DNA from: Lingula anatina | Lineage: Eukaryota > Animalia > Brachiopoda | Assembly (NCBI GenBank): GCA_051362555.1 | Contig: CM120644.1 | Coordinates: 7,634,954 to 7,698,953 of the forward strand | Direction of reading: 5' to 3' | Length of the DNA stretch: 64,000 bases | Shown: positions 3,903 through 59,514 of the stretch, piece by piece | How the letters are laid out: each line of letters starts with the position of its first letter | Numbering within the stretch: position 1 is the stretch's first letter | Translations under genes and position numbers: made by a program | Notes under the pieces: model-generated | Databases searched by the model: none | Told to the model about the DNA's origin: nothing | The model's input: the letters and a program-made list of their open reading frames with translations, nothing else

Positions 3903-5509
3903 AGGAGGGGTGTTCACCATCGTATTTCCCAGAGGATCGCTGTGAAGTTAGGAGCGTTTTAATAGCTTTGTTCTAGAAGTAAGCACTAAAAAATTCATGG
4001 AACCTTTTAGAGCTTTAGAATTTGTAATGTTTCCATAAAAGGGTCAATCTATCCGCCGGCTGCCCTGGCCTCGGGGACATAAATAGATAGGACAAGGGTG
4101 ACTGGAGATGTAAAGTTCACTGACCGATATTTGACTAGAATTGAAAGAATCCGTCCTTCAAATTTTCATCTATATGTGTAGACAACCAGACATGTAATAC
4201 AGTGAGGTCTGACCACTAGAAATCTGGGCCTGTTCAGATCCAAGTTGATACTCGGAATAACTAATCCGCGGATCAAATATGACTGACGCACTCGAAAGCT
4301 TGCCATGCAATCCCCTAATGGGTCCCTCGCGGCGTTAAAGGATAAAGCAGTTAATCAACTTTAAGCTACAAGCATGCGTTTAAAAAAAAGATAACTCACG
4401 TAGCCTACTGCTGCATCGTGGGTATCACCACTCGTATGTTTTACACTGGATTCCTGGGTTTGAAAGCATAGACACCATTTCCAGAGATTAGATCGATCTA
4501 CTTTAGATTGACCTAACTCCCTGGGGGTTCACGCTAAATAGCTGTCAGCCGGGCGGACACGAAAGTTAATAACCCCCTTACTGCTTGTAGTAGGCGGGAC
4601 GGACATTTAAGCCGGATTATCTGACAGTAATCTACTGAGACTCCTCGCGGGGATAGATCGATCTAAAAGCTCTGGGAGTACAGCCATAGTTACACGCTCT
4701 GCCCATAGAAAGTTTAAACACATCAATTTCTCAACAGTTACAACGTAAATGAAAACTAGGTCTGAACATGTCCCCTCCTCTTGTGCAACATTCATTTATT
4801 ATTTTATTATAAATATTTTTGGCAATAATCTTACGCAAATTATCATTTCTATGCCATAATGGAGCGATTGATTCCATTGTATTTTACTAGTTGAAGGCAA
4901 TGTTTTGTTTAGTAATTTATAGAAATCTTGACAGCACTTCTCATTTGCAAAGAAAGTACATAAATATTTGGTAATTAAGGGAGTGATTCCTCAGAATCGG
5001 ATGTTTTAAAATTTATTCCAAGGGCACCCAAGTATTGCATAATAACCTTTATAACCACACTTTTATATTCTAGAGAGCAGGCCCGTATCGCCTAGTTATT
5101 TCTTCTTTTTCTTTTCCTAATCATTATTGCCTTAATTTTCTTTGGAATGACACAAGTTCCTATGAAGCAAAAATGACTGATATAAGAAGGTGCACGTTTA
5201 AATGCGTGGAGCTCTCGGCGGCGCCTGATACTTCAATACTAACAAGCAAACAAAGTGCGATTCAGAAATCTGTTTTATTTAGCTTAAAACCGTGAGAAAA
5301 TATCATGTCCCAGGTAAACACACAAGATTGCTCCGAGAATTCAAATAGTTAAAAAAACAACAACACAAGATGAATCTGTAAGATGACAGAATTACACTTA
5401 AATTTACCATTTACTAGCCATAATTATTCCTGTCAAAATGTTCATGAAACATCTCTTGCAATACACGCCAATTCTATTCTTTACGGATCCAATAAAGTTA
5501 ATTTTTTTG

Positions 5510-5746
5510 CCGGCGTGAAGGGAATGATGGTCCCAGAGACGGATATCTAGGGCCTCGCATGTTCAGTACAGGTTAGGGTTAGTCGGATGTATCGGGGCTA
5601 GTACACTCTGAAAACACTCCGGTTAAAAATAACTGAAAAAAAAAATGGTGGAAACCAACCGATTCAACCGTTCAATATGTGTCTAACTAATAGTCCGGTT
5701 GATGTAAAAAATTAATGATCGGTAGGTACACTGACTGACTGACTGA

Positions 5747-5778
<32 letters not shown>

Positions 5779-6067
5779 ACAAGATTCAACAAGTTTGTAG
5801 AATTACTTTATAGTCTTTCGATATTCTTGTTAAATGTCCTCAGTTCAGTGGTACAATAACCAATCCACACGGTAACCATGTTGACCAATCGACTGATTGA
5901 CCAATAACCGAATAAACTTGTTAGTAACTGATTTATAGTCAACCGATTTTATCGGAAGGGTCGGTAACCGATTCGTTTTTAGAATGTACAGTATATTGGA
6001 AGAATGTCACCGGTGCAAAGTAATGGGGACTAAAGTTTCTAGCTGACTACCGTTCTTGTCACACAGG
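5510..6067. mobile_element. CCGG-ended MITE copy (same family as 22170-22340), split by a nested insertion
   Basis: 5510-5603 and 5987-6067 align colinearly with 22170-22340 (shared GTACAGGTTAGGGTTAGTCGG, CAAAGTAATGGG, GACTACC..CTTGT.ACAC.GG). Confidence 0.7.
5604..5986. mobile_element. Nested MITE with CACT-type imperfect TIRs and TA flanks (CACTA/EnSpm-like non-autonomous element)
   Basis: Ends are TA|CACTCTGAAAAC ... GTTTTTAGAATG|TA. Internal AACCG/CGGTT motifs and (ACTG)n, (AAT)n repeats. Absent from the sister copy at 22170. Confidence 0.6.
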
Positions 6068-6390
6068 CTCTGGTTTCACAACGTTGGATGTTTTTGGTTG
6101 TCAAGGCTCACTGTGTTTATTCAGTTTTTGATTTGTAAGATGGTATATTGTAGTTTGACCTTCTTGACTGGCAGAGTGCTGCTTCAGAAACACGCCAATG
6201 AAAATTGTAGAAAGGAAATAAGACACAACTAGACAAACATGACATGATGAACAGTGATTCCTGTTTCTTGTTAAAACAGCATTTTCTGAATCGGATTGCT
6301 GTGAACTTAACACCATGGAAAAAGAATGGAAAAGTGTCATTTCTGGGCGGCAATTTCACAAAACAATCATCACCTAGCCACTGTGGATCT

Positions 6391-8282
6391 TCATGTGAAC
6401 AACCAGAAATCTCTCTCGCCATCCGTCACTTTGTCTGTATCGCTACTTTCATCCTGGCGGAAAAACCTGTCTAATTCAAGGAGCATGTTGCTGCCGCCAG
6501 GATTCATATGGTCCAGTATTCGCTTCAGTGTTTGACACTTCCTTGTATCCCTATAGACGTAGCAAGAGGAATTGGACCGACTGGGACTTTTACCACTTCG
6601 AACCGACCTCATGGGAATGTTGAACGGGTCGACCCGGACGTAAATTTTTTTGGTTGGACTTCTTCTTACCGGTTTCATTTTCCATACATCTGGCTCTATA
6701 GGCATAATGTCCCCCTTTTCAGCAAACTCATCTACTCTTTGATGCCTAGTAGGAGCTTTGTCGTCAATATGTGCATCATTCTGCACGTAGATGATCTCCA
6801 GATACGGTGCCACAGAACTTAACGAATCAGCCTCAGCAAGATTTCTTTCCAGGCGAGATGGTTTCATAGATCTACGTTTTCCTATTAGGTTATATGGATC
6901 CGTTCTAGTACGCTTTCTTATGTTAAATGGGTCCATGGAAAGGCGCTTTCCTAAGTTAAATGGGTCCATGGAAAGACGCTTTCCTAAGTTAAATGGGTCA
7001 GCAAGATTTCTTTCCAGGCGAGATGGTTTCATAGATCTACGTTTTCCTATTAGGTTATATGGATCCGTTCTAGTACGCTTTCTTATGTTAAATGGGTCCA
7101 CGGAAAGGCGCTTTCCTAAGTTAAATGGGTCCATGGAAAGACGCTTACCTAAGTTAAATGGGTCCATGGAAAGACGCTTTCCTAAGTTAAATGGGTCCAT
7201 GGAAAGGCGCTTTCCTAAGTTAAATGGGTCCATGGAAAGACGCTTTCCTAGGGTGGCATGGGTCGGAGCAATTTGTTGCCCAGGATAAAAGTCAGGGTTT
7301 TCAGCACTATAAGACCCAAGTGAACGGCGTTTTCTAAAGTTTTTGTGGCCATTTTGATGTCTTTTTCCGAGATTAAAAGGGTCCATGGACATCCGTTTCC
7401 CTGGGACAGTTGATTTTATGGTGAATTTTTTTCCAAGATTGAAAGGGTCCATAGAAAGGCGTTTTCCCATATTGAAGGGGTCCATGGAAAGGCGTTTTCC
7501 CATATTGAAGGGGTCCATAGAAAGGCGTTTTCCCAGATTGAATGGGTCCATAGAAAGGCGTTTTCCCAGATTGAAGGGGTCCATGGAAAGGCGTTTTCCC
7601 ATATTGAAGGGGTCCATGGAAAGGCGTTTTCCCAGATTGAAGGGGTCCATAGAAAGCCGTTTTCCCATATTGAATGGGTCCATAGAAAGGCGTTTTCCCA
7701 GATTGAAGGGGTCCATAGAAAGGCGTTTTCCCATATTGAAGGGGTCCATAGAAAGGCGTTTTCCCAGATTGAAGGGGTCCATAGAAAGCCGTTTTCCCAT
7801 ATTGAAGGGGTCCATAGAAAGCCGTTTTCCCAGATTGAAGGGGTCCATAGAAAGCCGTTTTCCCATATTGAAGGGGTCCATAGAAAGCCGTTTTCCCATA
7901 TTGAATGGGTCCATAGAAAGCCGTTTTCCCATATTGAAGGGGTCCATAGAAAGCCGTTTTCTCAGTGGTTCTTGTCCTGTCATTTCATGATAGTTTGACT
8001 TGTCTATAGATCCTTGTGCTTTGAAGGCGAACGTCTTTTTGGGGAGCAACGTGAAATCCGTTTGCCCATCTTTGCTTTCCAGGAGGGATACACCTTTCGT
8101 TGGGTTGACTTCATCCATCGGCGTATTTTCGCCCTTCAACCCAGGGTCATCTTCAACAGACTTTGTCCAATATCGACTTTCGTAAATATTCACTTTTTCT
8201 GTGTTTAAACCGTCATTGTGGCCACTAACAGTAGAGTAAGTAGGGTCCTGCAGCTCCTTCCCCAGGCCGAGGTGCGTCAGTC
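6391..8282 (-). CDS. Neuropeptide precursor, distal terminal exon (isoform A): multi-copy LSMDPFNL-amide / LSMDPFNM-amide peptides
   Basis: Long ORF of tandem LSMDPFN[L/M]-G-KR units (Gly amide donor plus dibasic cleavage site). Strong acceptor ttgtttttgttattttcag|GA at 8283/8282, phase 1. The first ~22 aa of the listed ORF are intron pyrimidine tract. Confidence 0.95.
7426..7953 (-). repeat. Coding minisatellite, 16 x 33 bp (9 LSMDPFNMG, 7 LSMDPFNLG units)
   Basis: Counted from the translation and cross-checked against the antisense ORF 7385-7990. Confidence 0.95.
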
Positions 8283-9093
8283 CTGAAAATAACAAAAACA
8301 ACAATAAATCATAACTCTGATGAGTGTGAAATCTAAGAACAACCAACACTAGTTACTATACATTTATGAAAAGAAGTTACATCAGGTTAGACTGGGATGT
8401 TTAATCGGTGCAGTATGATTAAGATGCTGGGGCATAACACGATAGAAGAAGTAAAGTTCCGTGTTTTAGCCAGGAGAGATAAACCCAGCACAAGACAAGT
8501 AAGATGATTCCGAGCAGTACAGATTGGTTGCCATTATTCAATCTTTGATGTCCATAGCAAAAGTAGCATTGGATCCTGGCAGGAAAAAAAATTCATCAGA
8601 AGAAGCCTGAGACAAGAAACCACGAGCTCTTATACTTCACTTTGCCGGTCAAGGCCCAAATGAAATTCCTGACACTGGTGAAGAAAACGACGTTGAACCA
8701 TTGATTTTACACCCCCCCTCCCCAAAAAAGTTTAGGAACGAATTTCAAAATGAGAGCGAGCCGCTCTTCGACTCTCACGCTGCACAGAACAATGCTTTCC
8801 AAAGGGTTACTGCATGCTGATTTTGAATTAGTATTTGCCTCTCAAAGTGTTATTGTTAGTCCCAGAGAGCGTTCAGAAATAAAGTGCTTGCGCATGTGCA
8901 GCAAGAACACTTTTTGGCAATGAAGTAAATTCTGAAGTGCTTACCATCTGGTTGTTTTTTGATGTGCTTTGTTTTGTGGTGGTGTTTTAAAAAAAGGATG
9001 TTGGTTACTTTTGGTTAATTTATGTGTTAAAAGGTAAAAACAACGGACTTTGAAATACCCCACAAGGCAAAATGATCGTTATATTGCAAAATA

Positions 9094-9145
<52 letters not shown>

Positions 9146-10763
9146 GTTTGTTTGGTCGACGAGTATATGTAACTGATTAAGTATTTATAATTTCGATTTT
9201 TATCAGTCTTGCAAACAAGTCACGTAGCTAGGAGCACGCTCGACTGTCACCTTAATCGGTAAATGGACCACAACGAATCCGAACCAGATTTTTGCATAAA
9301 AACACCTTTTTTTGTTTGTCTAACTCCATATCTATCACCATAATTAGTAATGTAAGCAATGGCCTATCCTACATTTATCGCTTGGATTTTATCACGGGGG
9401 CACAATAGAATAAGTATTGAGATTAAGCCAAAGACATATCTGAGAACGCATATTGAAAAAAAAAAACTTGTGGCAATGCAGATGGTATATAGGCCCTTTG
9501 TACACCCAGTATATGTACGGTGCAAAGGTCAAGGACAGTGAGAACATTAGCCCATACATGATTTTTTAAAGATAAGGGCCAAAAGCCGTCCTCAGTCAGA
9601 ATAGACAAATGCAAACTTTGCTTAATGCCATATGACCGAAATTGTTGACAGTAAAGATGCACATTATATATAAAGATACTGTCAGAAAATTTATAATTTG
9701 GTCAATGAGCACCACCGACCCTGTATATTTGAGGCATCAGATTTTTTTGTCCTTTATTTAACAAATAGGGAAATGCATTGGGTATTGGTTTGGTAAGTGG
9801 GCAATTTTATAATGAACAAAGCTGAACTTTTTTATGCCCTAAAATTGCCCAGGCTGTATTTTTGACACTTCCTTCACATCCTCAAAAACTTTACCGCGCA
9901 TCTGAAACCTGCAACCGGAACATTGCACATAATTGCGTATGTTTACCAACAGTATACATGTACATGTTGCTATGGCGCAACATGTAGAAGAAGTGAAATT
10001 TCACATGAGAAAGTCTACAGATAAGACAACATTTTACAGAAAGTCACGCCGACCATGCAGATAGGACAGTGGCCACTGAAGGGGACAATGAAGCGTGTAG
10101 AAACGTCTACAACCAATTTGAATCAGGAAAATGAAATGATAGTTATCAAGACTAAGATTAATGACATCCCGAGATCAAGAAATATTCCAGTTTTTGTGTG
10201 GGAGCCAGATAAGTATTATTTACATTCCGTTAAATTCCGAGCGTCAAAGTTTGGTTTAGAGAGTTAGTACACTCCTCTGCTCTGTTTATATGCAGGTAAT
10301 GTGTTCACGATTTCTTACACAAGTGAATGTTTAGATGTAATTAATTTATCATGTTCTGTTGAAAAATCCCCATTCACTACAAAATGCAAACAATTTTGTA
10401 ACCATAATGTACTGTCAAGTTAAGTTTTATTATCATTTAAAGTTTAAATATGGATATTCAAAAATTCCTGTCCAAATTTGTGTGTTTAAGTGTTGTTACC
10501 CTGGCAACAGAGAGGATAAAAAAAAAAAAGATGTCCATTATGTTGGTTTGGGGCTATAATGAACAAATCATCATTTTCATCAAAATCATGTGCCACCCTA
10601 TTCTGAACTTTACAGAGACTGGTACTTATTGCTTAGCCATCGAGTGGACAGCCGACAATTCACCCTTTCCAATAATTCGAAACACTTTAATTTTGCAAAT
10701 TTTTATTTTTATTGTTGTAAAAGGAGCACTTAAAAACAAAAACAAAAGAAGCAAGCATCTTAA

Positions 10764-11101
10764 AGGGATAATAACTCTTCGTATGAGATCTATATTTCAC
10801 AATGAAAACATTGTGAATAACTCACAGAAATATAATATATTCTGTTTTACCACAAAAACGGCAGTTATAGCTATTTTTTCTGATATCTGAGCTTGTCTTT
10901 AGACCACGTGACCTCCATTGATGGCTATACTCTGTTAAAATCTCTTAAGAGATTTTAACAAAAAAGCAAACTTTTTAGAAAAAAACCAGGGACTAACTTT
11001 GAATGTAAAAATGGATTCATTAACCATTGGTAAGTATGGGAAAATTGTTGTTTACTCCAGGAAAATTCATTTTTTGGCCGAAACGAAGAGTTATTATCCC
11101 T
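10764..11101. mobile_element. TTAA-flanked MITE (Kolobok-like), 338 bp
   Basis: Perfect 19-bp TIR AGGGATAATAACTCTTCGT / ACGAAGAGTTATTATCCCT, with TTAA on both sides (10760-10763, 11102-11105). Confidence 0.85.
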
Positions 11102-11507
11102 TTAAGTAAATTACAAGTATTCTACGAAAAAGATACATAAATAACGGCAAAAGTCCTGAAAGCCAACACAGTCAATGCACAATTCTTTCATTCTGCTTGT
11201 TGAAGTACACTTTTTTTGTTTCTAAAAAAAAAGAAATTAAAGGCCGGACATGTCATGCACTAACATATGTGTTTTAGACTGGTATGTTTAATTCATTTCT
11301 TCAGTAACATGAATATTGTCACACTGTGATACGCTATAACCAGTTAGTATGGTTTTGTAATAGAAACCACATGCTACAATGTATGTTAAGGCGAACCTCG
11401 GCGTTACAGATGGAATGATCGCATATTTTTGACATGTCAGCTTGGTAATCGCAAGCCTTTTCAGCTAGCGGCTCGAAATGGAGCTCACCAAGATGTTTTC
11501 TCGGCTG

Positions 11508-12106
11508 CTAGAGGTGCATATTGTATGGGTCAGCTACGTCGTGCCGTTTGCTACCAAATCCCCAATCTTTCGGGTACACAGCATAAAGGTGAAGACCATT
11601 CAGTTCAAATATAATGGGCTTTATTTTCTTTAACACACTAACTTTTGTTTGTTTTGCTTTTAAAGGCAAGTTCCAGGGATCAACAATTCTGATAAATAAC
11701 CCCGTGTTCCGAAGTTGCCTTTTATGGCGTTCGTTAAAAAAGGCAAAGCCGACCAACTTCATAAGTATAGGATATTCTTGACCATCATTAAGATTCAGAT
11801 ATTCTTGTTTCCAAAGAACATCCGGGTAATTTTGGTACCGGTGCACATCCGGGTATTCACGTGTCCCACAAAGAGAATAAGAGGTAGGCATGCACAAAAT
11901 TTGAGGCATTTTGAGCGTCAAGCGTTTGTGAGGGTCAAACTGCGGTTGCTGCTTGCTCTGATAAAAAATCTTGGCAACCAAAGGGTCGATGATTTTTAAT
12001 GGTCTTTGCTGGTGGCTGTCTCGAATCCAAAAGTTGCCTGGTTGATTTGGACTTGTTTTCACCATAGCAGGAAGCCATTCCTCTGGCGGCATACCACCGG
12101 CACACA
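11508..12106 (-). CDS. Neuropeptide precursor, proximal alternative terminal exon (isoform B) with DPWNL / DPYNM peptides
   Basis: ORF with KR sites, IRIVDPWNLPLK and terminal KR-HDVADPYNMHL*, resembling YVRVDPFNIPMR and DPYNL in the distal exon. Acceptor gtcatctttttgcatccag|TG at 12107/12106 is phase 1 and in frame with exon 1. Alternatively a stand-alone gene from the ATG at 12152. Confidence 0.75.
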
Positions 12107-13336
12107 CTGGATGCAAAAAGATGACATAAACATACACACAAAATTTCACCATAGTTTTGAATGCATTTATTTCGAATTTATTGCATTATGAAAATAGGGC
12201 AACATTCTGAATGTTCAACATTTAGAACATGGATGCTTCTCTGGCTGGCACAGTAATGCGAACGCTGGTTCAATTTTTGCGAAGACGCTGTCGCAACTTG
12301 CAGAGCACTCGCTTCAGCACCAAGGGGAGCGAGCTTTCAGTTTCGCTGCTTTGTAAACTGGTGAGAGGCTGTGCTCGGTTTTGACAACTAGGGCTTGAAC
12401 AACAATCTGGCGGCAGCACTTGCTGGTTTTACCTGTTTTTTTTTTTGCTTTGGAGATATGAGTCCCATAGCATGATGCTTTATAAAACTTCGACATGGTT
12501 TCTACTCTTTACTAATTAAATCATAACAACGCCTTCCAAGAATATTCTCTGTCACCAGGTTGTACTAACTGTTGTGATTGAATAGGCGTTAAAACAGTGT
12601 CAATATCTGTTCTGCTGACGGAGATCTGCTAAAAATCTATACTACAGTTTTCACCCCAAAAACGTTGCCGTTACGTCATCAACTTGAGTGACCGTATTCA
12701 CCCCGATGTACTTCAGATGCAACAGCATTATCTCATACTATGAGACTGTTTATTTTCGCGTTTTCTAAAGCCAAAGCGATGCTTGTGCCTCCTTTCTACG
12801 ACCACAGCAATGCTAGTTTCATGGTCGCACAAAGGACGCAGAAAGGACGCCGTCCAGTGTCAAGGGGGTTTAAGGGGATAAGGAAAGATCTTAACCTTTC
12901 GATTCCCCTTATAACTATCGTAGGTCGGGTAATTTTGATATACAAGAAAACGCATATATACATGTATTTTCCATTGGTCGAAATTATTGCATGGGCCAGC
13001 ACCCTTCAGCATAAAACGATGACGTGCTTAACTTTCGTCTAGAGCTATGATATTTTCTTGAGCATTGTTTTCTTCATTTTTACCAAGGAATGAAGAATTG
13101 AATTGCTTCACATTAAATTTTATAGACAAACCATTCATTGTGCATGTCTGTTACTGGCGTTATCACAGATTTTCGTAAACAGATTTTGTTTCTCACACAC
13201 AGACAATCTTTCGCCAACAAATCTACGCAGGAACCAACCAAAATAGAAACCGACATGAGAAGTGCATTGCCAATAAGAGCGTACATGTAGATGTGCGGTG
13301 CATTGATGTGTACATGTAGGTTTATGACGCACATTT

Positions 13337-13450
13337 CAGGGGCGGACGGAGGCCGTCATCTGGGTCTTCCGGAAGACAGTCACATTTTTGTCAAGTTAAC
13401 ATTGTTGGGCATCTAATTTTTTCTGTTGGAAGACTGAATGGAGGATGCAT
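13337..13450 (+). mobile_element. Truncated copy of the CAGGGG-ended MITE found at 30855-31021
   Basis: Shares CAGGGG.GGA..AGGCCGTC.TCTGGGTCTTC..GAAGAC.GTCA.ATTTT...TTTTTTCTGT.GGAAGAC...ATGGAGGATG with the 30855 copy. Confidence 0.7.
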
Positions 13451-13472
13451 TTTAAGCTTAATAATTGTTTAA

Positions 13473-15589
13473 GGTGACTGATAGTAAAAGGACCAAAGTC
13501 ATAGAAACAAAGCCCTGGGCTTATAAGTTTTTATAAAAAATTAAAACAAACTTCCCAAAAGGCCAATTAAAGACGGGGATTAAGTACAGTGTCCAACGGA
13601 TGACGCTCTGGCGCCAATTTGAGGGGAAAAATGCCGTTTTCGGTATTGGGATTTTCTCTATAACCAAGACAGTCATTCAAGTGATTCAAAAGGCCTCATA
13701 AAGCTGGGTGAAAGCACTACAGCGGGGTACCAGGGAATTGTCTTAAACTATTTACTTTTGATTTTATCATCTTTTACGTTAAATCAGCCCATATTTCAAT
13801 GGGTTATTCACTTCAAAAGGCGATAACTTTCAAACAAACAATTTCCTCTTAAACCCCTGATATCATGCTGTAGTCCACATTCCTAACAACAATAGGTGCA
13901 ACTTTTGTAACGATCGGTTGCTCAGATAGTGAGATATACTTGGCAGCGATTCACTTATCTCGTCAATATAGAAAGCTGTTAAAACAGCCAAAAACGTTCA
14001 CAGGTTGGTTAACAGGGCTTAGTCAAATGCTTAGCTGGCAAATTTACCTGTTATCGGTTATACGATCAGATGGAACCATTGCTTATTGTCATCTAAAAAT
14101 ATTTTGTTTGGGTGCTTTGAAGGGGCAGAAAATCGTGCTTTTGTTACATTTTCCGACCACTCATTAGGCATGTAAGCGTGCCGCCATTTTGATTGACAGC
14201 TCTGGAGAGGGCCCTAGCCTTGTGATGCCCCGTAGGGTGTCAAGGATATGTAGAAGGAAGCGCTAACAAAGGCGATTACGTTTAACCGCAATTAAGAGGT
14301 GTGAAGTTGCATTTGAACGTTTCAATGGCTCTTCCTCGGCAATCGAGTAATTTTACCTGAGAGATTACTTCTTTGTTATCGGCAAAGTGATCAGATAAAA
14401 CTGTGTCGAGAGCAAGTGTCCGTCACTTGTGTTAATACGAGTTTTTTGACGGGTAACGCTGCAGGATTATTTTGCACGACACTTAGTAATCGTCAGATCA
14501 ACGGAAAAATCCAGTGATTACTTCATAGCGGTATTTCTCAGAATGCCAGCTAAGATAAAGGGGAGACGCCTAGCTGCACAAGAATCAGCGATAAAAGTGG
14601 CTGAGAGAAGGCTTTTGAATAAATATTTTATTTTTACACACATGACACTTAGACCCTATTTGCTTTTTACCTGCTAGTCTTGACTATTCTCGGGGTCTTT
14701 TTGTGATTTTCATCTTTGGATACATTTTGAACTCTTTCTTCCCGCTTGATCAGTGATTTTGAAATTGTTTTTCTCCAAACATCGCAAAATGCAAAGCCGC
14801 TAACATGCGTTTTTATTTTTATTGTTTTAATCATGCTGTCAACCCTTGCTTGGATTTCTCTCGTTTGGCCATTCACATCACAATTTTTCGTGTGTCTCTC
14901 AAGCTCCATGATATCATATCTTGGAGAATAAAATTTTATTTTGTCAACATTAGATTTACCTTTTGCAGACGGCGACCAACAATCATTTCCGGTTTCGTAA
15001 CGTGTCGCAGATACGCTCGCCGATATAGATATTGCAAAAATTAGCTAGGCTAAAAGTATCCTTTTTAGCGTTTTTTTTTAATTTATCGATTTTTCTTTCA
15101 TTTGTCAATTAATTTAGACGATTCGATTAACTCTTTTGCCCATTTATTAGGTATTCAGAAATCAGTCATCCGTCTGAACAAATAGGACCGGTTTTCCCCA
15201 ACCGCCACGCATAGGTCCAAAATTTTCTTTCTTTCCTCAGGAAATGGACTTTTAATTCGAACTTTTCTCTTCCCCATAGTGTACTAGCTAGACTTCTTCG
15301 CTGCTAAGCTGATGTAAGACTTATGACCTATTACCGCACACGTAATCGGCTTATAACTCATTAACTGTGCTCCGACCCCCTCATGGCAACGGCCCTTAGT
15401 AACAGAGGCGTGGCTTAGTTGTCAGCCTGACTGGGGCGCGTGCCGGTTGAAAAACTCATCAAAAGACACATTTTGAAATGCAAATTCATAAAAATTATTA
15501 CATCCAACGTTAGATACTTTTTTGATTAATATAAACACACAAAAAACTCAAAAACATGATTTTAAGCGTATTTAACCCTATCACCGGCC
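13473..15589. mobile_element. Possible old TTAA-flanked (Kolobok-like) non-autonomous element
   Basis: TTAA|GGTGACTGATAG ... CTATCACCGGCC|TTAA; only 8/12 TIR match and no recognisable ORF. Confidence 0.3.
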
Positions 15590-18500
15590 TTAAATGGTGA
15601 ACTACTTGACATTTTGTTAGTTAATTTTTGTTCTTGATAGGTATCTGATACTGTACTTACACATGCGATCAAAGTATATATCACTTCAATATCATTTTAT
15701 ATTCATACTTGCGGAATTAGGAAAAAAAGGAAGAGGATGGAGGATTAAAAAAACACCTCTTTCAAATCATCCTGAATTCATAAGAGTAATGATTAGAACG
15801 GAGACATGCAAAACGGAATATATTGAAAATTATTTTATTCATTTATAAATAGCAAATAATAGTTATTTATGGGTGTGGGTCCATTGTGGTATTAACGCTT
15901 AAACGGAAAAGCCTTCCGTTTGTAAATGCGTATCACGAGTACTCGAACAATTAAGCATTTGCTTCAAAACTTCATTGTCTTTTTGTAAAATGTTTGGCGA
16001 CCGGCAGTTTATTTAGCTAACATGTATGATAGCACATGCCTGATAATAGAGTGTGGTGTTAACAGTCAAAAGATTTCTGCTGTCACGCTAGTAATGTCAG
16101 TAGTTTAAACGAGCCCCAGGACAATAATCAATTAGAGTCTCATAACGCTAATGGGCTACTGTTTGTGCTTTTGTATATGCACCGCATATCAATCAGAGAT
16201 ATACTGGATTCGGTTGAACCAAAACATAACATAGATCACACTTCGAAGAATCTATGCAGAATGTATGCGTTCTGTATAAAAATAATAATAATAAACTCTT
16301 CTGAAAAATAAATGTATGGTTTTACCGTGACGTCGAGCAGCTCCTGTTTTTTCCTATAATTTTCTTTAATTTAATTAATTAATTAATTTATTTATTTTCA
16401 TTTTTTTATTTGGGGGGGGGGGGGGAGTGAATGGGGGTGGATATTAAAGGATTTCAGACCGACCGTCAAAATGGCTTGAACGCAGCATATCCTTCAGAAA
16501 ACATGCCCAAATAACTATTTCTTTAACAAAATACACAAAACGGAAGTTCATTTTGTAAACATCGAGCATCAAAGAAGAGCCCTTTTCGCCAGGTCTGGGA
16601 GATTATGAGCTACGTGGTCACGTGGTCCGGTGACGACATGCAAGCCACAGGAGAAGAGGGCCAGTGTGTTTAGCTGTCAAACTGAGCTGCCATTATCTAA
16701 ATGTAAGATGACTATTCAAACTCCTGATAACAGTTAACACCCATTTGCCTCTCTTACCCGAGGGATTTAAACCCTCGTGAATGCCTGTGAAGCCATTATC
16801 CTGTCTATTCAATCAATGAAATAGCATTAAATTACGACTATATCTACTAGTGTAAAAAGATATGCTCAATATACATGTATATGTCCATTTGAAGTAAACA
16901 GAAAATCAAAAATTAAGTTAAAATCACATCCGCAAATTTTAATTTTTATAAAACTCTGGTAAAAGAAATTGATAAATCTATTTTTTGTTTGTAATCATGC
17001 AAACATCTTGAGTAACGAAAGTTTTTAGAATAACAACGTTTTTCTATAATATTACACGTTTCTTATGTTAAAAAATTTGGAGACGACACACTTAAAATTT
17101 ATTACGATATGTACGTTTAATTTACTGATAAATTTGTCCTCAACTTCAAGTAGGTTTTTAAAATGTCTGGTAACGAACAACTTTTGTAGATTACTTTCTA
17201 AAAAAATGCATTTGTCACCGTATCGTTTCCTCATCATGGATGTATCTGAAAGATATTTTAAATGGCTAAAATATTGCAAAAACATCAAACAACTAAAGAT
17301 GATGACCTGCGGCAAAAGAAGTCGCGATTTTTTATGCCGGGCGACACTGTGAAAGTAGCCTCAAGCTATTTATTGCGTTATTTAACATAAACATTCTAGA
17401 CACACACCCACACTTCGTTTGATCTACTTGTCATCAGATGTATCTCTGGAACAAATAACTAAGTGGCCAATTTGACTTTTCTCTATCGTTAAATGTTTGA
17501 AGTGTTTGATTACAAAAACCAGTTGAGACATTTCTAAAAATATGCCATCAAAATAGCTAACTGCAATGAACAATATTCACGGAAAAATAACATAAAAGTC
17601 ACGGAACACCTCAGACAAAGCGAGATTATCGTCAACGAGCTCAAGATCCTTTGCTGCTTTTTTTAGTGCATCCCACGGCAACGCAGATGAAGCAAAGGCC
17701 CTGGGCTTGTATGTCGTCACAGTACCACGTGGCCCAGAGCTGTTGCTTCATTTTTTGCAAATTCAGGTAGGGTTTATTAAATCGCCTTTTTTCAACTAAG
17801 ATGTTTTTATTTATACTATTCATGGGGTGGTAATCCATCCAAACATATTTCTAGTGTGTAGATTGAGTGCTGGATCTACGAATTTTAACGTGTCTTAAAC
17901 CCTTTAAAACATGTGTTTGTTTTCTTGAGTGCGTGAAAAAAATATGACGGTAACTTGCAATTGCGTGAAGTCTATACGGGTCATTGACCGAGTGGCGGCG
18001 TTAAAAATATGTTGACCATATGTAACATAATAACACAAAATGAAATGACAAAAAATACTGACACAGAATTCTAAATAACCATAAAATGTTCAACCAAACA
18101 AAATCAAATTGAAATAAATGGTATAAATGCAAACGAAATCTAAACAAAATAAACGGGACAAAAATCTGAAGTGTATGAACGCATACTTTAACGCATACTT
18201 TTCTTGTAGTAAATAAAAAGTTGAAGCTCCCACAAATAAATTCGTATTCTAACTCTGGCTGGGGATGTCGAGTCTTTTCCAATTGCCGCAAATTGCCAAT
18301 TTTTGGTCTATTTAGGAGGACTAGCGCTGGATTTCATCAACAAATTAATATCATTGCCGGGGAATTGATCTAAACCCATTGCACTAGTTCTAGCGACGAT
18401 TAACACACCCAACATCAAACCAAATCTAAGTGATTAGGCCATGATTTTACCTGCTAACGACGTTCGATTCGTCTTTGTCCTCATAAGGGAAAGGAATCGT

Positions 18501-21329
18501 GTTTGCTTGAAATTGATATACTGAAGTCACTCCTGGCAGCTGCGGTTTGCAGCGTCGCACCTGCGTTTAATGGCTTATTTCTGTCTTAACAGAATTCAGG
18601 CAAAAAATTAATAGGTCTTGTGATTATGAATGTAATCACATCAAGGTGTTGCAGTGACTTGCGCTATGCATCAGGACCTGTCAAGTAGCACGCCTTTTCG
18701 TCGCTTTGGGTGCGTACACAGAGAAATATCATGCAAGCTAGTGCGACACTTGAAGTGTAAACATTTGACTAAACTAGGTTATGCAGCGTCTCATCATCTT
18801 CCAAACCAAGGGTGTTTTGGTTCCTCACAGGCTTACACACGGGGAAAGGAGACGCTCCCAGTGCTTTTCTAAAGAAAGGAAGAATGTTTTGCAAACACAA
18901 TTAAGCTGCCTGCATCAAACACACACGTTAGTTTGCGTTGGATTCAGTGGAACCACCACAACATCATATTCTAAAAGGTGTATACTTACAGTATGTTTGT
19001 AAAGAGCATTTTTTCCTCCTCATTTCACTAATAAAGTAGATTATCAGATCGACTGAGAGTGCACCTCTGATGTTGAAAAAAAGTAGCGGTGAGGAATACA
19101 TACAACCGCAGGGGTGCCTAAGCGTGCTTTAATTGTGTTCTTTGGGGCAGCTATTGCCTCCAAGTTTGGTTTTTGGTTTCTTCGATCGCATTGAAAAGGA
19201 GAATAACGAGCTAATAATGATCTCAGTATCTACTCGAACCATTTAAGACCTAGTTCCTGTAGGCTTTGTTTAAACCAAATACTACTTTAATTGTTCCGAA
19301 GCAGAAAACCTTATTGGGACAAAACCAATCTACTGGTGTGATCTCAAGCCTAGTAGGTGCCACTGAAAGCTCTTTCTGATTGGAGCTAGATCTGAATGTG
19401 AAATTTGCATCACTTGCACGTTAATCTTAAAGCACCGAAAGTCTTACGAGACCACCCCCGCCTCTCAAGGGACGCTCACTCAAAACAACAGCGCAAAATA
19501 AGCAGACGTGCCGAAACACGACATTTAGGCCTACCAACTTTTGTAGGATGTTTCATATGAGTCTAACTTTGAAAAACGTATTCCTAGTTATGAAAGTTTG
19601 ATGTGTCGTAAAACAAATCTTTTGGGCTCGTTGTAGGATGTTGTTAATGGATTTGATTTGATTTTTTTTGACGTTTTTTAGTTTGTTGGTTAAGATTTGT
19701 ACAAAGTGGAACAAGTGGCATGTAATCTTTGCATTTGATTAAGTCTATCTTTTGTTTTTATTCGAGCCTCATCAAAACAACAATAAAAAATGTACAGAAT
19801 ACTTCTTTGTTGATGAACTTTTTTGTTTATTTTGCCGTACAGAAGCACTTGTCCAATTAACTCGGGCTAAGCGTTGCGCGCTTAAATGAATCTGGCGTTA
19901 ACGCTGTTTGCTTTAGAGACCTGCAGAGTATTGAAATATTGTTTGTTTCTGTGTGTTAGCATACATAATTTAGAGGTGCATTAAAAGCTCCGGCAATTTG
20001 TTCCACCCTTGTGGCTTGATTGTCAGTTACTTTTGTCGCTAGAGGCAGGAGATCTTTGCATTGGATGGATTAATAGAATTATAGATACTCCTTGCATGGC
20101 TACTTTTACCCTATGGGATTTTAATGAAGTACGTTCTCTCTAAAGAGTGGGAGGACCTTGAATCTTTCCATTTTCGACCAAACTATGACAAAGACTCCCA
20201 CAACAATGGCAACAAATGTCATCTTGCAACACAAGGGGCCTCGTGGAATACATGCACATCCCTTAAACTATGCACTGCTGGGTTTGCGCAGTTTGTGCTA
20301 TTGACGGCAACGCATCTACCCCACAAAACAATGCAATGTCATCCAGACAGCGCAGCCCAGGCGCCCCTATTGCCATAGTTAAATGTTAACTGAAATGGTC
20401 CTTTCATATCCGAAAGACGTGACGGCTGTAATGTACAGCATATGCATCAAATAGGTGAAAAAACGTACAATTATTACTTCCTATGATACTGCTATACTAA
20501 TAATAATAATAATAATAATAATACACAAACACAAACACAAATACATGTTGTATGCCCTTGAACAGGCTTGAACGCGCCTACTCAAAGCGGACACGCGCGT
20601 AGGAACGCAAGCAGAAACGCACGCACGTATTTTAACTGGTAGTTACAAATGCCTCACGCAAAACACCTATAAATATAGGGGGTATTCTCTTTGTCCAAAT
20701 GGCGAGGATTGTATTGGTTGTCATACATTGACGAACCTTCGGCGCGTTGAAAATATTCACGCTTTAACTGTGGTGAAAATGTTTTGGAATTTGAAATCTA
20801 GTTCGGGGCCCTACTGCGGCAAAACATGGTTATGAATTTCGTTAGCAACAAATGCTACAAATGCCAAATAATTGTCTTAAAGAATACCAAATAAGAATAC
20901 GGAATAAACATAGGCCCGAAAAAAAGGAAGGAAAACAATGGGCCAAATACGTGACTCTAGGAAAGGTGTCACTGAGAAAAATTTGGAAAGTATCGCAAAA
21001 TCAGTTCGAATCGGTTGCATGCGGTACCGATTGCGGTAAAGTTACAACATAAGAAATTTACAACATATACATCCAATAGAACGGAGGTTTGATCATCGTT
21101 TCGATTAACTTAAAATTCTTCCCTGTCTCACATCGATGGCATCCACGTACATCACAATACAGTTCTTTCCCTCTACCCTGTTATATCTCAATAATTTTTT
21201 TTAACAACTAGTGCACTTTAAAACTTTCAAGCGTGGCACATCTGACATAAGATATTCCCCTTGATAATAAAACTCTAGAGATTGTCACAAAAGCTCGTCC
21301 GAGATAATGGTGGTACAACAGCAACCTAC

Positions 21330-21390
21330 CTGAAAGCAGGAAAATGGAGAGAACCACTTGATTCATCGTATGGCTGCCTTTCTGTTGCAT
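21330..21390 (-). CDS. Neuropeptide precursor exon 1: N-terminal part of the signal peptide (MQQKGSHTMNQVVLSIFLLS-), shared by both isoforms
   Basis: ATG at 21390 (second in-frame ATG at 21366), hydrophobic core VVLSIFLL, strong donor CAG|GTAGGT at 21330/21329 in phase 1. Completes a signal peptide with either downstream exon (...LLS-G-LTHLGLG or ...LLS-V-CAG). Confidence 0.8.
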
Positions 21391-21470
21391 GATCGTGCGG
21401 TTTGCCTTCACAACATGGTATTCTTCTTTGCCTTCCTGAATATTGGTGTCCCAGCAATTGCTTAACAAAT

Positions 21471-21506
21471 GACTGACAGCTCGCTCTAGACTCTCATGTT
21501 TATATA
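21471..21506 (-). promoter_or_regulatory. TATA box plus initiator core promoter of the neuropeptide gene
   Basis: Minus-strand TATATAAA (21506-21499) lies 30-32 nt upstream of an Inr-like TCAGTC (A at 21474), which is 84 nt before the ATG. Confidence 0.7.
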
Positions 21507-28035: not shown

Positions 28036-30819
28036 TCTGTAGGCTGATATTTCCCGAACGGTGTTTAATCAAATGGTGTTTAATTATTAAATTAAGCCCG
28101 TTATAGGTGCGCTATTGATATTTCAGATGGACTGAATTGAAATTGGGGTGTGGGTGGGGGGTGCTTACATAGATGACAGCAGCCTGTGTCATAAACATTT
28201 CAATTTACTAGTCATTGGGACCATCACTTACCTAAAATCTACTGATCCAAATCATGATTCACTTGTCTTTCAACAAGACTAGGCATTTCCCCAACTGCAT
28301 TAATATTATAATTACAAAACTTCATTTTGTCAAAGTTTTTTAGAATCATCATGTAACTGCTACATTTCAGAAAAATTAGATCTAGTCGAAAACTCTTGAA
28401 AACTATGCCATGTCGGGTCACTAACGTCTCAGACTGGGAGAGCGAGAAAGAAACTATTGGGAACACTTTAGACCCTTATATTGTTATGCTCCGTCTCTCT
28501 TGCTTCAGTGACAAAGATTTTTTAAAATCTATAACCTCGGTAGAGAGTAGCACCGAACCCTATACATAATAGCGAGCTTGCAAATGACGTGTTGGGCATC
28601 GCCAATAATATGTTATAAAATGTGAAAATTATTAATGGGCTTTAAATTTGGACACGTTCTAAATCATCTGGTGGGTAACGCGATGTCATATAATTCCTAG
28701 GCTCGTAGACAAAATCTGAGAAATTCCAAGACAGACAACGATAGCCATTTTTAATAGTTAAATGTTCTCTTATACAAGCACTTTTCTTACCCGTCCTTGG
28801 GAATCAACCCCTTTTAGTATAAAAATTCAGCCAAAGGGTTTGTTAAATGCTAATCTTTAAACGGGCTACTAAACACGATAACCCTATACCACGTAGATTT
28901 TACAGGAGGTATTAGAAAAGGAATTATAAAGATTATCATTATATGACTTCGGGCTACAAACACGTAAAAATACATTGCGTTAAATTGATTTCGTATTATT
29001 ACATTTCTCCAACAAGGTGTCAATTAAAAAAGCAAAGATCTATTATTCTATTTTTAGCACATCATACTTCATATTTAAGCAGTTTGACGGGTTTTTATAT
29101 TCGTTTGTTAGGTTATTACATTGGGTTTGATCTAATATTGAATCGTTTCTCGCTTAAATGTGATGAAATTGGTGAGGCGATTAAATCTAATAACGGAAGT
29201 GCCCACTCCAACGCAAACAAAGCATCCTCCATTGAATGTCAACCCTTTTAGCTTTAATGTGATAATAAACGTTTAAAAGTTAAATGGAGTGTCCTGAGAC
29301 GGCCTTTTATGCTTACAGAATTATCACATTTATCCTGGAGGAAAGTGCGCCATCAGTTGATGTCAAAGTCCGGATAATTTTACGCAAGAATGGTACATGT
29401 TCTTGCAGGTTTAGGACGCTTAAAAGAAGAGCTCAGTTTGTTTTTTTTCTGTAACGGTACTTATTCTATACAATACTTGTTTCGATCTTCAATATATACT
29501 ATACGGTACAGAACGGTAATTAGCGAAACGAGACTAAGCCATGATGACATCGGAGTGGTGTAAACCCACAGTGTGCAGGCTAATAAAGCTAGCAGTTAGA
29601 TGTTTGATTGATAACGCGTTACTTTTCATCAATGTACAGAGTTGATAGTGTACATATCAATGGTGTTAGTGTCAGTGGTTTTAGCGTAAAAGTTGTCAAT
29701 TTTAAGCACGTTTTGGTCTCTCTCTATCTGTCCCCCTCTCCCAATCTCTCTCTATCTTCTTCTCGCCTTTACATGGTGAAATAACAATGCAGTCTTCACT
29801 CTGTCAACTTTATGTCGCAAAATATCGTTAGAAAAAGTGCACTAATATGATTGACACATTTTGTTCTTCTAGCATTAGCGCAATGGTTTGCCCCAAGCTT
29901 CCATACACTTACTTTATTACGTGGCCTAGCTACAGCAATTGTTATAGCAGCATTCCCCAAGCACAGCTATCGCAATTTCAACACGTCTCTCTGTCGCACT
30001 CTCCAGGAACAGTCGATAGAAGTTTGCATATTGGCCTTGTTATCACTTATTGTTATACATTACTCTGTAAATATTCTCGTTCACCGACTCCTTTCATATG
30101 CACTTTCCAATGAACAAATCAACAAAGTGACAGGTTATTCAAATTCGTTATTTTCTTTTTTGAAACGAGAGTTGCCAACTTTGTAATTCATGCATGATCT
30201 CGTATAATTTTTTTAGTAAAATGTCTGTTTTCCCTGGTCAGACTTTGGAGTATGTTGATGGTGATTTAAAACCATGGCAAACGAACCGGAAACCTTCCTG
30301 AAATATATAAAGACGGAAACATAAATCTCTAAAATTTAAGAAATTCGAATTCACAACTTGCGCACGCGCGTACGGTCATTTGCTCCTGACAAAAACAGCC
30401 AAATATCATTAATGATTTATGAACGCGCTGATATCTCACTTAAGTCAGAAGTAGTATATCAGACGTTTAAAGTCTGGTTTAAGTGTTCCTGGTTCATCTT
30501 TTAGCAGCCTTTCACGAACTGCAAAATATTGATTCTTTTCGTTTCACAAGCTAACGTAATTCAATTTGTAAAAGATCAGTTTATTGAATTTCCCAAAATA
30601 TCTGTGCTCATTTTCTGCTTCTGGATAACTGTCAGCTCTTGATAGACTCCATTCATGTACGTCATACATGTATTTTAAAGAATAAGTGTTGTACATTTAG
30701 GAGACAATGACAGGAATACATCCTCTTTTTCAAAGAATGTGTACCTTCAAGCACATTAAAATGTTTCATTATCGTGAGTCTCTTGAACCAGTACTCCACA
30801 TTGAAAATGTATTACACAC

Positions 30820-41698: not shown

Positions 41699-42754
41699 AT
41701 GATGGTCACTATGGACTTCACTCCACCCAGCAACATAAGCGGAAACGGGACAGATCGTAACGTCACCCAGGATCAAGATGGCGGCGATGTGAACGCCTAT
41801 CAGCTGGTCACCTTAGTAGCCCAGGCCATCCTCATGATTGTGATATGTTTTGGTAACGGCATGGTGATTGCAGCGTTCTACCGCTCCGAGGTGATCCAAA
41901 CTATCACCAATTACTACATCATGCACTTAGCCGTGGCCGATTTTACTGTTGGACTTTCCTTGCCTTTCCATATTGCCTGCTTTCTGAAGCCAGACATTCT
42001 GAATAATATATACGTGTGTATATTTCGGTACTCTACTCTGATGACCACGCAGTCGGTGTCTGTTCTTTGTCTCCTAGCTATCACCATAGATCGGTACTCT
42101 GCCGTCGTATACCATATGCGATATCACAGTCTCATGACGAAATGGAGAGCGGCCGTCACCATAGTAGCGGTGTGGATTATTCCTATAGTTATGGGGGTAA
42201 TCGTCCCGTTTCTGTGGCATAACCCGTGGCCCGAAAAAGAAAGTGAAAGAGATTGTGACTTCGGTAAGACTTTGTCACTCGATTTTCATAGGTACATATC
42301 CGTTGGGTCGTTCGCTATCGTCACTGCCGTGATGTTGACGCTGTATTCCAGAATATTTCAGGTTGCCAAGCGACATGCTGCGCAAATCGAAGACTTGATG
42401 GCGAACATTCCGGACAAAATGGCGTTCAATGTGAATTTAAAAATTGCAAAAACTGCCGCCATAGTCATCGGGTTGTTTTTGTTATTTTGGGCACCATTCT
42501 TTCTTATCTTAACCACACAGGCATACGGGAATCTCATCCACTCCAAGTTGTTAATAGAACTGCGGGTATATGCCAGCATTTTAGCCCTTGTTAATAGTGG
42601 TGTGAACCCTGTTGTGTATGCCTATCGTCTGCCTGAGTTTAGGAGGGAATTTCGAAAGATACTGCATCTCAAACAAAGCGGCGGGGCAAACTCCCCCGAG
42701 CATGATAACTTCTCGGCAAATGGACCAATGCCACCCCCTAACCCACCGGTGTAA
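41699..42754 (+). CDS. Intronless rhodopsin-like (class A) GPCR, adenosine-receptor-like orphan
   Basis: 351 aa with 7 hydrophobic segments, N-glycosylation sites (NIS, NGT, NVT), TM1 GN, TM2 LAVAD, TM3 TQSVSVLCLLAITIDRY, TM6 FWAP and TM7 NSGVNPVVYAYR..EFR. The TM3 and TM7 segments resemble adenosine receptors. Confidence 0.93.
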   Translation: MMVTMDFTPPSNISGNGTDRNVTQDQDGGDVNAYQLVTLVAQAILMIVICFGNGMVIAAFYRSEVIQTITNYYIMHLAVADFTVGLSLPFHIACFLKPDILNNIYVCIFRYSTLMTTQSVSVLCLLAITIDRYSAVVYHMRYHSLMTKWRAAVTIVAVWIIPIVMGVIVPFLWHNPWPEKESERDCDFGKTLSLDFHRYISVGSFAIVTAVMLTLYSRIFQVAKRHAAQIEDLMANIPDKMAFNVNLKIAKTAAIVIGLFLLFWAPFFLILTTQAYGNLIHSKLLIELRVYASILALVNSGVNPVVYAYRLPEFRREFRKILHLKQSGGANSPEHDNFSANGPMPPPNPPV

Positions 42755-57817: not shown

Positions 57818-59148
57818 ACGGTTCACGTGTCACGCGATTTCCTTTAATCTCAGCAGTCAGAGAATTAGTCATAATTTCCTTACAAATATTGCAATAGATA
57901 ATGCTATTTGTAAATTGATCGAAATTAAGATATCTTTTATGAGCTAGAATATACTAAAAGACTAATTATACAGTTACGAAAGGCCCTTTATTAACACACG
58001 TAAAGCCGCAGAAGAGGATACTGAGTATTTGGAAATTTAGAATAACTTACCGGTAAGTGAGAAATGACTTGCTAGTAAGCATGTACTTATTACTTGCAAA
58101 AATTTATCCAAGATTCATTTAAAGACACAGGTTCTAAGACACGATTTTTGGCCTTTTTTAAACTTATGGAGTCGAAGATGAGCTTTACTAAAAGGAAACT
58201 AGTAGATCTAACTGAGCAATCTGTATTCAAACATACGCATCAGATACAATAAAATTACACATTTTATTAATGGAATTTCTGTCCTAAAAGTCTTATTAGA
58301 AGTACGGGTTATACGTGTACAGACATTGACATGTAGATGTAGTTTGGGTAACACAGAATGATTATGTAATTATGCAGTGACGCAAGTACATTGTAATTCA
58401 TACGCATTTTGCTCAACATAACGCATTTTCTGAAATAAAAATGGTTAAAATTCACTATGACAGCATTACACAAACGCGCGTGCTCGCCCGACACGCACAA
58501 AACCACCGTGTATTTCTTCTTACACAAATATTTGTAGATTTCGCGCCTGCGCAGGAGGCTCTTCCCTCTACTGGCCAGGAGCCGAAGGTTATCAGATAGA
58601 GTGAGTGGCGCAGTGCTCTACCTGAGAATTCATTAGCGGTCCCTTGCTCCCACTAAATGAGGGCAAGGCACACACAGTGGTCGTTAACGGGCCTCTTATA
58701 AGGACGGCGCGTTTGTCGTGTCGGCTGCTCCAAAACAGGGTGCTGCGCATCGGTGAAACGTCTTTTGGCACCGGGCAGGGGCGAGTCACCCCCAATATAG
58801 TTTTCTTGACTTTGGTGCTCGTGAGGAAGTCTGATTTAGAATTTCCTGAACGTGCGTTAAGTCAGCTGCAATAAGCGGTACAAAAGGCAAGGACAAGTCT
58901 GAATCAACCAAACCCTGTTAAAAAGAGTCAACAGAAAATTTTCGTATTGGCATCCAGAAATTTGTTGGAGAACGAACACGCTCGGGTTGCAGCCTAGTGA
59001 TTCTTCAACTTCACCGCGGATTTTTTCACTCAGCCTCAGACAAAACCTCAAACACCAATTGATCGGTTTCGACAAGGGAGCAAAAGAGGAAACAACCGTC
59101 AGACTTGGCACCAATATCAATATCTCAGGGATATTTCTGTCGACCATA

Positions 59149-59221
59149 ATGGAGAAAGTTACTTTAATTGGACTATGTGCGTTGGTAGTGGCGTCATTCA
59201 CAAGCACATCTGCGGAGCCAA
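59149..59221 (+). CDS. First coding exon (signal peptide MEKVTLIGLCALVVASFTSTSA-EP) of an unidentified secreted or membrane protein
   Basis: ATAATGG start context, typical n/h/c signal peptide, consensus donor A|GTAAGT at 59222 (phase 1). No downstream exon identified in the window. Confidence 0.7.
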
Positions 59222-59514
59222 GTAAGTACAGAACAACTGAGGTAGATATTAGCCAAAAAATTAAGTTTATAAATTCGTTCAGTACGATCGATGCAACTTC
59301 GTGAACCAACAATTTCACTGTATATTGCGTTGCGAAATACGCACTTTGTTATAAGGAGAGAGAGAGAGAGAGAAAGAAAGAGAGAGAGAGAGGGGATGAC
59401 ATTACTAGATTCCATTTAAGGTATTCTTTACATAATTCTTAAACCAAATTAAATTTACCCCAAGGAAAAATTCTCCTAGTCACGAATCATTACAAATCGT
59501 CGTTCATGTATTAT

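Follow-up and report, generated by a model that had tools for sequence, protein, structure and literature searches.

A repeated, putatively amidated neuropeptide precursor of Lingula anatina and a probably related open reading frame in its intron

Does a neuropeptide gene of the brachiopod Lingula anatina supply two different peptide sets from a single signal-peptide exon? The question is raised by a stretch of 64,000 nucleotides from this species (GenBank assembly GCA_051362555.1, contig CM120644.1, forward-strand positions 7,634,954 to 7,698,953), which was analysed as a whole, is called the window hereafter and is numbered from its first letter. On the minus strand, where all features described here lie unless stated otherwise, a short first coding exon (exon 1) is followed by two long open reading frames (ORFs), a proximal one and a distal one rich in peptide repeats. 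A preliminary description of this DNA took the two for mutually exclusive exons. As both ORFs are closed by a stop codon, the two would be alternative last exons and not mutually exclusive cassettes; neither is an internal exon with a common downstream coding exon. In this study, we present support for exon 1 and the distal exon as parts of a transcribed gene for a multi-copy neuropeptide-type precursor with predicted dibasic cleavage sites and Gly amidation signals. We tentatively read the proximal ORF as an alternative last exon of the same gene that would be used rarely or in certain cells only, a reading that we favour at somewhat less than even confidence.

The peptide precursor and its transcript

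The promoter motifs claimed in the preliminary description are present, namely a TATA box (TATATAAA, 21506-21499) and an initiator (Inr)-like TCAGTC (21476-21471), and they predict a transcription start near 21474. The combined TATA+Inr pattern gave five matches at four places in the window, as compared to 1.45 expected. Exon 1 had been given as a 61-nt exon at 21390-21330. These coordinates and the donor hold, but they delimit only the coding part (20 codons plus one base), whereas the exon itself would start near 21474. The N-terminus encoded here is the same as that of the database protein XP_013401647.1. It comprises the n- and h-region of a predicted signal peptide whose hydrophobic core has a mean Kyte-Doolittle (KD) value of 3.29 over eight residues and whose -3/-1 site was assigned by a heuristic; a second ATG lies at 21366. 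The phase-1 donor CAG/GTAGGT that closes exon 1 has the top score of the 767 GT sites in 8300-21400. A two-codon upstream ORF (ATG TTG TGA, 21415-21407) is found in the predicted 5' leader.

The distal coding exon (8282-6391, 629 codons) is preceded by a strong acceptor (8305-8283), ranking first of 674 AGs under a small acceptor model built from eight acceptors of a neighbouring gene. As the preliminary description had stated, the 8283/8282 acceptor is in phase 1 and continues the frame of exon 1 to a product of 650 amino acids (aa). AATAAA at 6121-6116 is a candidate poly(A) signal. The exon encodes 28 DP[FY]N units, nearly all of them between KR, KK or RR sites; in 25 of the 28, a Gly stands before the downstream dibasic site. 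These Gly-extended units consist of 12 LSMDPFNL, 9 LSMDPFNM, one MSMDPFNL, one N-extended DPFNL and two TRTDPYNLI. Within the exon a 165-nt block is duplicated, at 6886 and 7051.

A protein search with the distal ORF found a single relative among 7,994 scored candidates. This protein (P0001, XP_013401647.1) is the product of the uncharacterized L. anatina locus LOC106167403; shorter relatives of it were not found at E<=1. XP_013401647.1 starts with the 20 codons of exon 1 and continues into the exon at 8282, and after collapsing of the repeat units it is identical to the spliced product of the window. The join from 21330 to 8282 thus accords with an independent gene model. Outside the repeat arrays both are the same protein, while XP_013401647.1 has unit arrays of 10/5/1 and 606 aa as compared to 15/4/1 and 650 aa in the window, and carries neither a neuropeptide annotation nor a proximal isoform. 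The different unit numbers (6886-7960) may reflect a copy-number polymorphism or an assembly difference. All nine feature rows among the Atlas matches listed for the distal form were peptide-precursor clusters (0.76-0.89), which we take as a lead only; no family won, and one family was common to two of the top ten matches. The Pfam family PF13369, considered for the distal exon, had no passing stretch and was read as a repeat artefact.

Concerning transcription, we used eight of nine raw-read runs with the same species label (X2 was left out) and read 6-30% of each. The distal exon was covered at low depth in seven of the eight runs, with about 10,100 letters or about 70 reads in all. In X4, X5 and X6 the first mate always lay on the plus strand, as expected of minus-strand RNA in common stranded libraries, whereas the few distal reads of X1 were mostly oriented the opposite way. 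Depth over exon 1 was seen in two of the eight runs (X8, X9). In X9, 115 letters fall on exon 1 and about 187 into the first bin of the distal exon, which fits a single read pair split 115+35 over the junction from 21330 to 8282 plus a 150-base mate, an indirect calculation made by hand from depth bins; a further 35 letters in the exon 1 bin have no partner that could be placed.

Exon 1 is very probably spliced by default over 13 kb to the distal acceptor, giving a massively repeated amidated peptide. By the established rules of convertase action and amidation, convertases would cut at the KR sites and Gly would be amidated, yielding mostly LSMDPFN(L/M)-amide; processing, amidation and a neural role are predicted in this way. 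The firm gain is a highly repeated, predicted amidated peptide in an uncharacterized Lingula gene.

The LSMDPFN(L/M)-amide precursor is apparently undescribed, as far as the searched parts of two lophotrochozoan neuropeptide catalogues go. DPFNL, DPFNM, FNLGKR and FNMGKR do not occur in the portion searched of the supplement of PMC8557429 (about 1,300 nemertean, brachiopod and phoronid precursors, Lingula included), and the peptide motif is absent from the searched supplements of PMC6425005. Full-text literature searches with the motif returned nothing relevant and those with the accessions nothing at all, most subscription papers and bioRxiv supplements being outside their reach. The portions covered of PMC13121700 and PMC4595640 do not mention the gene; their large data tables or gene models may bear on its isoforms. 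In PMC8557429, brachiopod receptors for CCAP, tachykinin and DH44/ELH are reported, the precursors of which were found in nemerteans only. Because of such receptors without a brachiopod precursor, synthetic LSMDPFN[L/M]-amide could be screened on orphan brachiopod G protein-coupled receptors (GPCRs), no pairing being implied.

The proximal open reading frame

The proximal ORF (12106-11508) covers 198 codons past the junction and gives, together with exon 1, a product of 219 aa. The phase-1 acceptor at 12107/12106 with this 219-aa frame is present as the preliminary description had it. The ORF encodes the motifs DPWNL (11681) and DPYNM (11531) and four dibasic sites, none of them preceded by Gly as in an amidation site. 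The proposed lack of amidation is therefore borne out for a related ORF, and so is the proposed common DP-aromatic-N motif: of the DP[FYW]N motifs in the window's 127,996 six-frame codons, 28 lie in the distal exon, two in the proximal ORF and none elsewhere. Both acceptors had been said to complete a plausible signal peptide. They do pass the -3/-1 cleavage-site test after exon 1, but this says little, as 206 of 674 AGs pass it too. The T-rich stretch in front of the ORF (12152-12107, acceptor rank 25 of 674) may be an acceptor tract or may itself be signal-peptide codons behind an in-frame ATG at 12152.

Several observations argue that this frame is neither accidental nor foreign to the gene. 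When 1500 introns of 13 kb were simulated, only 2 had a stop-free run of at least 225 codons; in the real DNA the second-longest run has 125 codons. Shuffling yielded two or more DP[FYW]N motifs in 5 of 200,000 cases, the W in this class having been added after inspection of the data; the strict distal motif DP[FY]N[LMI] arose in 204 of 200,000. The last proximal motif stands four residues past a KR, as in the distal units, and the strict motif with a dibasic site two to five residues ahead was obtained in 19 of 300,000 shuffles. When the 95 DP sites outside the distal exon were scored against the distal units, both top sites fell into the proximal frame. The asymmetry between GC content at first and second codon positions (GC1-GC2) is coding-like (3 of 1000 shuffles), and internal repeats are spaced by 27 nt, in frame (16 of 1000 shuffles). 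Moreover, the ORF is flanked by exon 1 and the distal exon and agrees with them in strand and phase. Between the proximal ORF and 8282 no other signal-peptide first exon was scored, save the ORF's own 5' end. Judged from these sequence features, the proximal ORF probably arose long ago by duplication of the peptide exon and would be a diverged paralogue of it. No real DNA alignment between the two exons is left. As the frame is open even though the DNA no longer aligns, selection probably kept it at least until recently.

Other comparisons of the proximal product gave no family. Pfam returned none, and Atlas gave only deaminase-like leads (0.75-0.77), at shuffle level. The PDB sequence search had one match (E 0.87), and a single-sequence fold was uninformative (predicted local distance difference test, pLDDT, 30.5). 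Three further candidates for duplicated parts were rejected. A third exon copy near 18000-17965 had E 0.46, lay directly past a stop codon and was taken as chance. A duplicate of the distal acceptor region at 11440-11150 matched at 18 of 19 positions (4 of 1000 shuffles) but was only third of 626 real windows. The 5' end of the proximal ORF, considered as a copy of exon 1, matched it at 12 of 17 positions, the best of 674; up to 11 matches occur at true acceptors, however, and its local score of 15 lies below the window mean of 18.4. There are also two phase-1 GTs. One at 11489, 19 nt past the proximal stop, could make a stop-bearing cassette, and one at 12095, 58 nt past the ATG at 12152, could make 12152-12095 an alternative first exon for the distal array.

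Readings of the proximal frame

If the proximal ORF is an alternative last exon, splicing to the strong distal acceptor would be the default. Certain cells or stages would instead use the weaker proximal acceptor and terminate the RNA upstream of the distal exon, so that a 219-aa precursor with the same signal peptide would be made. This precursor would be cut at its four dibasic sites into a few non-amidated peptides, one of them the C-terminal HDVADPYNMHL. Alternative splicing of exon 1 to the proximal exon is plausible, if unproven, and several results weigh against it. Depth over the proximal exon was zero in all eight runs, where 9-13 pairs would be expected at the distal level (13, or 9 without the 3'-most bin). 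Among the junction rows listed, each requiring at least three reads, none joined 21330 to 12106 and none 21330 to 8282 either. Both junctions had been put forward in advance; the second fits the gene model and the X9 arithmetic, while the first is without reads. RefSeq holds a single form with no isoform suffix and no annotated proximal isoform. The 12106 acceptor scores 2.8, at the low end of the training range of 2.3-9.0. The candidate poly(A) signal ATTAAA, which had been placed at 11293-11288 and actually lies at 11292-11287, is no better than chance, because 42 AATAAA or ATTAAA hexamers occur on the minus strand in 5000-21400. In addition, the in-frame ATG at 12152 allows the ORF to be read without any splice. 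Alignment of the whole proximal and distal proteins was not significant (198 of 2000 shuffles; 91 of 2000 for the tail only). Synonymous codon use of the proximal ORF was not coding-like, 965 of 1000 shuffles scoring as high, in a test that is itself weak since real distal pieces score 255 and 266 of 1000; full codon use was not coding-like either (1819 of 2000). Protein searches gave no match at E<=10 among 9 candidates and none at E<=0.001 among 1.84 billion representatives. In the sampled RNA the proximal form is thus a minor one at most. This does not refute a restricted isoform, because the runs come without stated tissues, their animals may not be the one behind the window and the gene is barely expressed.

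The weights we give to this and the three competing readings are our own judgement and were not computed. Zero reads in eight of eight runs against about 70 on the distal exon, one RefSeq form, no database protein, missing amidation signals, codon use unlike that of coding DNA and a weak acceptor would be accounted for if the proximal ORF were a duplicated peptide exon now silent or nearly so, a recently inactivated pseudo-exon in a gene that makes the distal precursor only. We consider this doubtful but deserving of serious attention. The 225-codon frame is still open although its DNA no longer aligns with the distal exon, and silencing would have to be very recent, because neutral decay should quickly break the frame; furthermore, even the distal form is barely seen in these runs of unstated tissue. 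That the ORF is a separate nested paralogue without introns, starting from the ATG at 12152, is, in our estimation, unlikely. Here the T-rich stretch would code for a signal peptide and its likeness to an acceptor would be only apparent. This ATG, 14 codons upstream, has A at -3 and G at +4, the hydrophobic stretch behind it has a mean KD value of 2.64 over eight residues, and independent control would explain why the unit is missing from samples that express exon 1 and the distal exon. Signal-peptide codons and acceptor tracts do mimic each other, as the coding end of exon 1 scores 5.6 as an acceptor, above 12106. However, such an ATG was found by chance in 73 of 600 site-phase pairs, the nested gene too is unexpressed in all eight runs, and a new promoter would be needed inside the parent intron. 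No TATA+Inr pattern is close; the nearest (13124-13088), one of the four places in the window, lies in repeat-covered DNA. Significant likeness to exon 1 or its promoter is lacking, and the unit is therefore not a clear whole-gene copy or retrocopy.

The proximal ORF might also be unrelated to the neuropeptide gene, a chance frame or another coding remnant whose motif is coincidental. No significant overall alignment, no homologue, no reads and the codon use would agree with this, as would the choice of W in the motif class after the data had been seen. We hold it to be very improbable, given how rarely shuffling produced the strict motif or two relaxed ones, that the motif is found nowhere else in the window, that the length of the frame is rare and that no repeat-derived reads fall on the ORF, unlike on the adjacent repeats. 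A more far-reaching idea, which we rate as improbable, is the birth of a neuropeptide gene from a duplicated exon, the old acceptor tract doubling as a new signal peptide behind the ATG at 12152. Such a unit could be an alternative last exon, a nested gene or, via the GT at 12095, an alternative first exon, and the undescribed family of its parent could be the ligand of a brachiopod GPCR group without known precursor.

Neighbouring features and known systems

Repeats surround the proximal ORF. Between the two peptide exons lies a 348-bp repeat (10759-11106, no strand assigned) resembling a miniature inverted-repeat transposable element, with perfect 24-nt terminal inverted repeats; it bears a very deep read pile-up with unlike flanks and is very abundant in poly(A) RNA from other loci. 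Directly upstream of the ORF, 12278-15910 is a block of repeat-derived DNA that has diverged reads in all runs and includes the TATA+Inr-like match at 13124-13088. Further upstream in the intron, 16616-17734 has 31-nt inverted arms (87% complementary, 1057 nt apart) and repeat-type read cover and is a probable second non-autonomous DNA transposon.

On the other side of exon 1, a multi-exon mannose-6-phosphate-receptor/ATG27-like gene (35793-30240; Pfam PF02157, PF09451) ends in its own last exon at 30297 with a YxxV-type tail. An 850-aa database protein (P0003) fuses this gene to exon 1 via a weak AG near 21435; because of the gene's own last exon, we reject it as most likely a gene-model artefact. 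An intronless rhodopsin-family GPCR (41702-42754, plus strand; Pfam 7tm_1, E 1.7e-44) lies 20 kb from the neuropeptide gene. Two long ORFs at 49605-45773 jointly resemble a secretin/adhesion-type GPCR with a somatomedin B domain (Pfam 7tm_2, PF01033). A 133-codon open frame at 58903-59304 on the plus strand has a hydrophobic stretch and no Pfam match, and its codon tests were neutral.

The mammalian calcitonin/CGRP gene combines shared 5' exons with alternative 3' exons. Among lophotrochozoan multi-copy precursors, the L. anatina precursor resembles those of allatostatin A/buccalin and others in its signal peptide, its spacer, its tandem KR-peptide-G-KR units and the Leu- or Met-amide ends (PMC8557429). 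Lingula allatostatin A has another precursor sequence, with GL-, GI-, GM- or GV-amide ends according to the same source, whereas the peptides of this locus would end in N-L- or N-M-amide; Pfam gave no allatostatin A/buccalin match for the precursor. A closer parallel in gene structure is the FMRFamide gene of Lymnaea, where exon 1 is spliced to exon 2 or to exons 3-5, the resulting mRNAs excluding each other in single cells (PMC4208409). There, and in Helix, one 5' signal-peptide exon serves alternative downstream exons with different peptide sets, as the L. anatina locus would (PMC4208409), and D-P-F is also part of the heptapeptides GDPFLRFamide and SDPFLRFamide of Lymnaea (PMC4208409). In contrast to Lymnaea, where both mRNAs are proven (PMC4208409), one form is supported at the Lingula locus. 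Its peptides would end in FN(L/M)-amide, none in RF-G, and a separate Lingula FMRFamide precursor exists. By its predicted C-terminal motifs the precursor is outside the FMRFamide and allatostatin A families.

In insects, orcokinin A/B, Locusta myosuppressin (exons 1+2 or 1+3), neuroparsin and termite calcitonin A/B arise from alternative exons of one gene and give related but distinct peptides; sometimes one form has many peptide copies and the other few, and orcokinin B may be midgut-specific (PMC4237046). The two Lingula exons likewise encode related but distinct sets, their DP-aromatic-N motif being shared beyond chance and the proximal set being without amidation signals. No sequence relation to the insect genes was found, and both transcripts are known there (PMC4237046); moreover, the minor Lingula form would retain neither amidation nor the tandem array. 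Splicing of the proximal exon, if it occurs, would make the locus an example from brachiopods of isoforms switched through exon duplication, one form losing amidation and copy number. This would be only moderately surprising, because the mechanism is well known from molluscs and insects.

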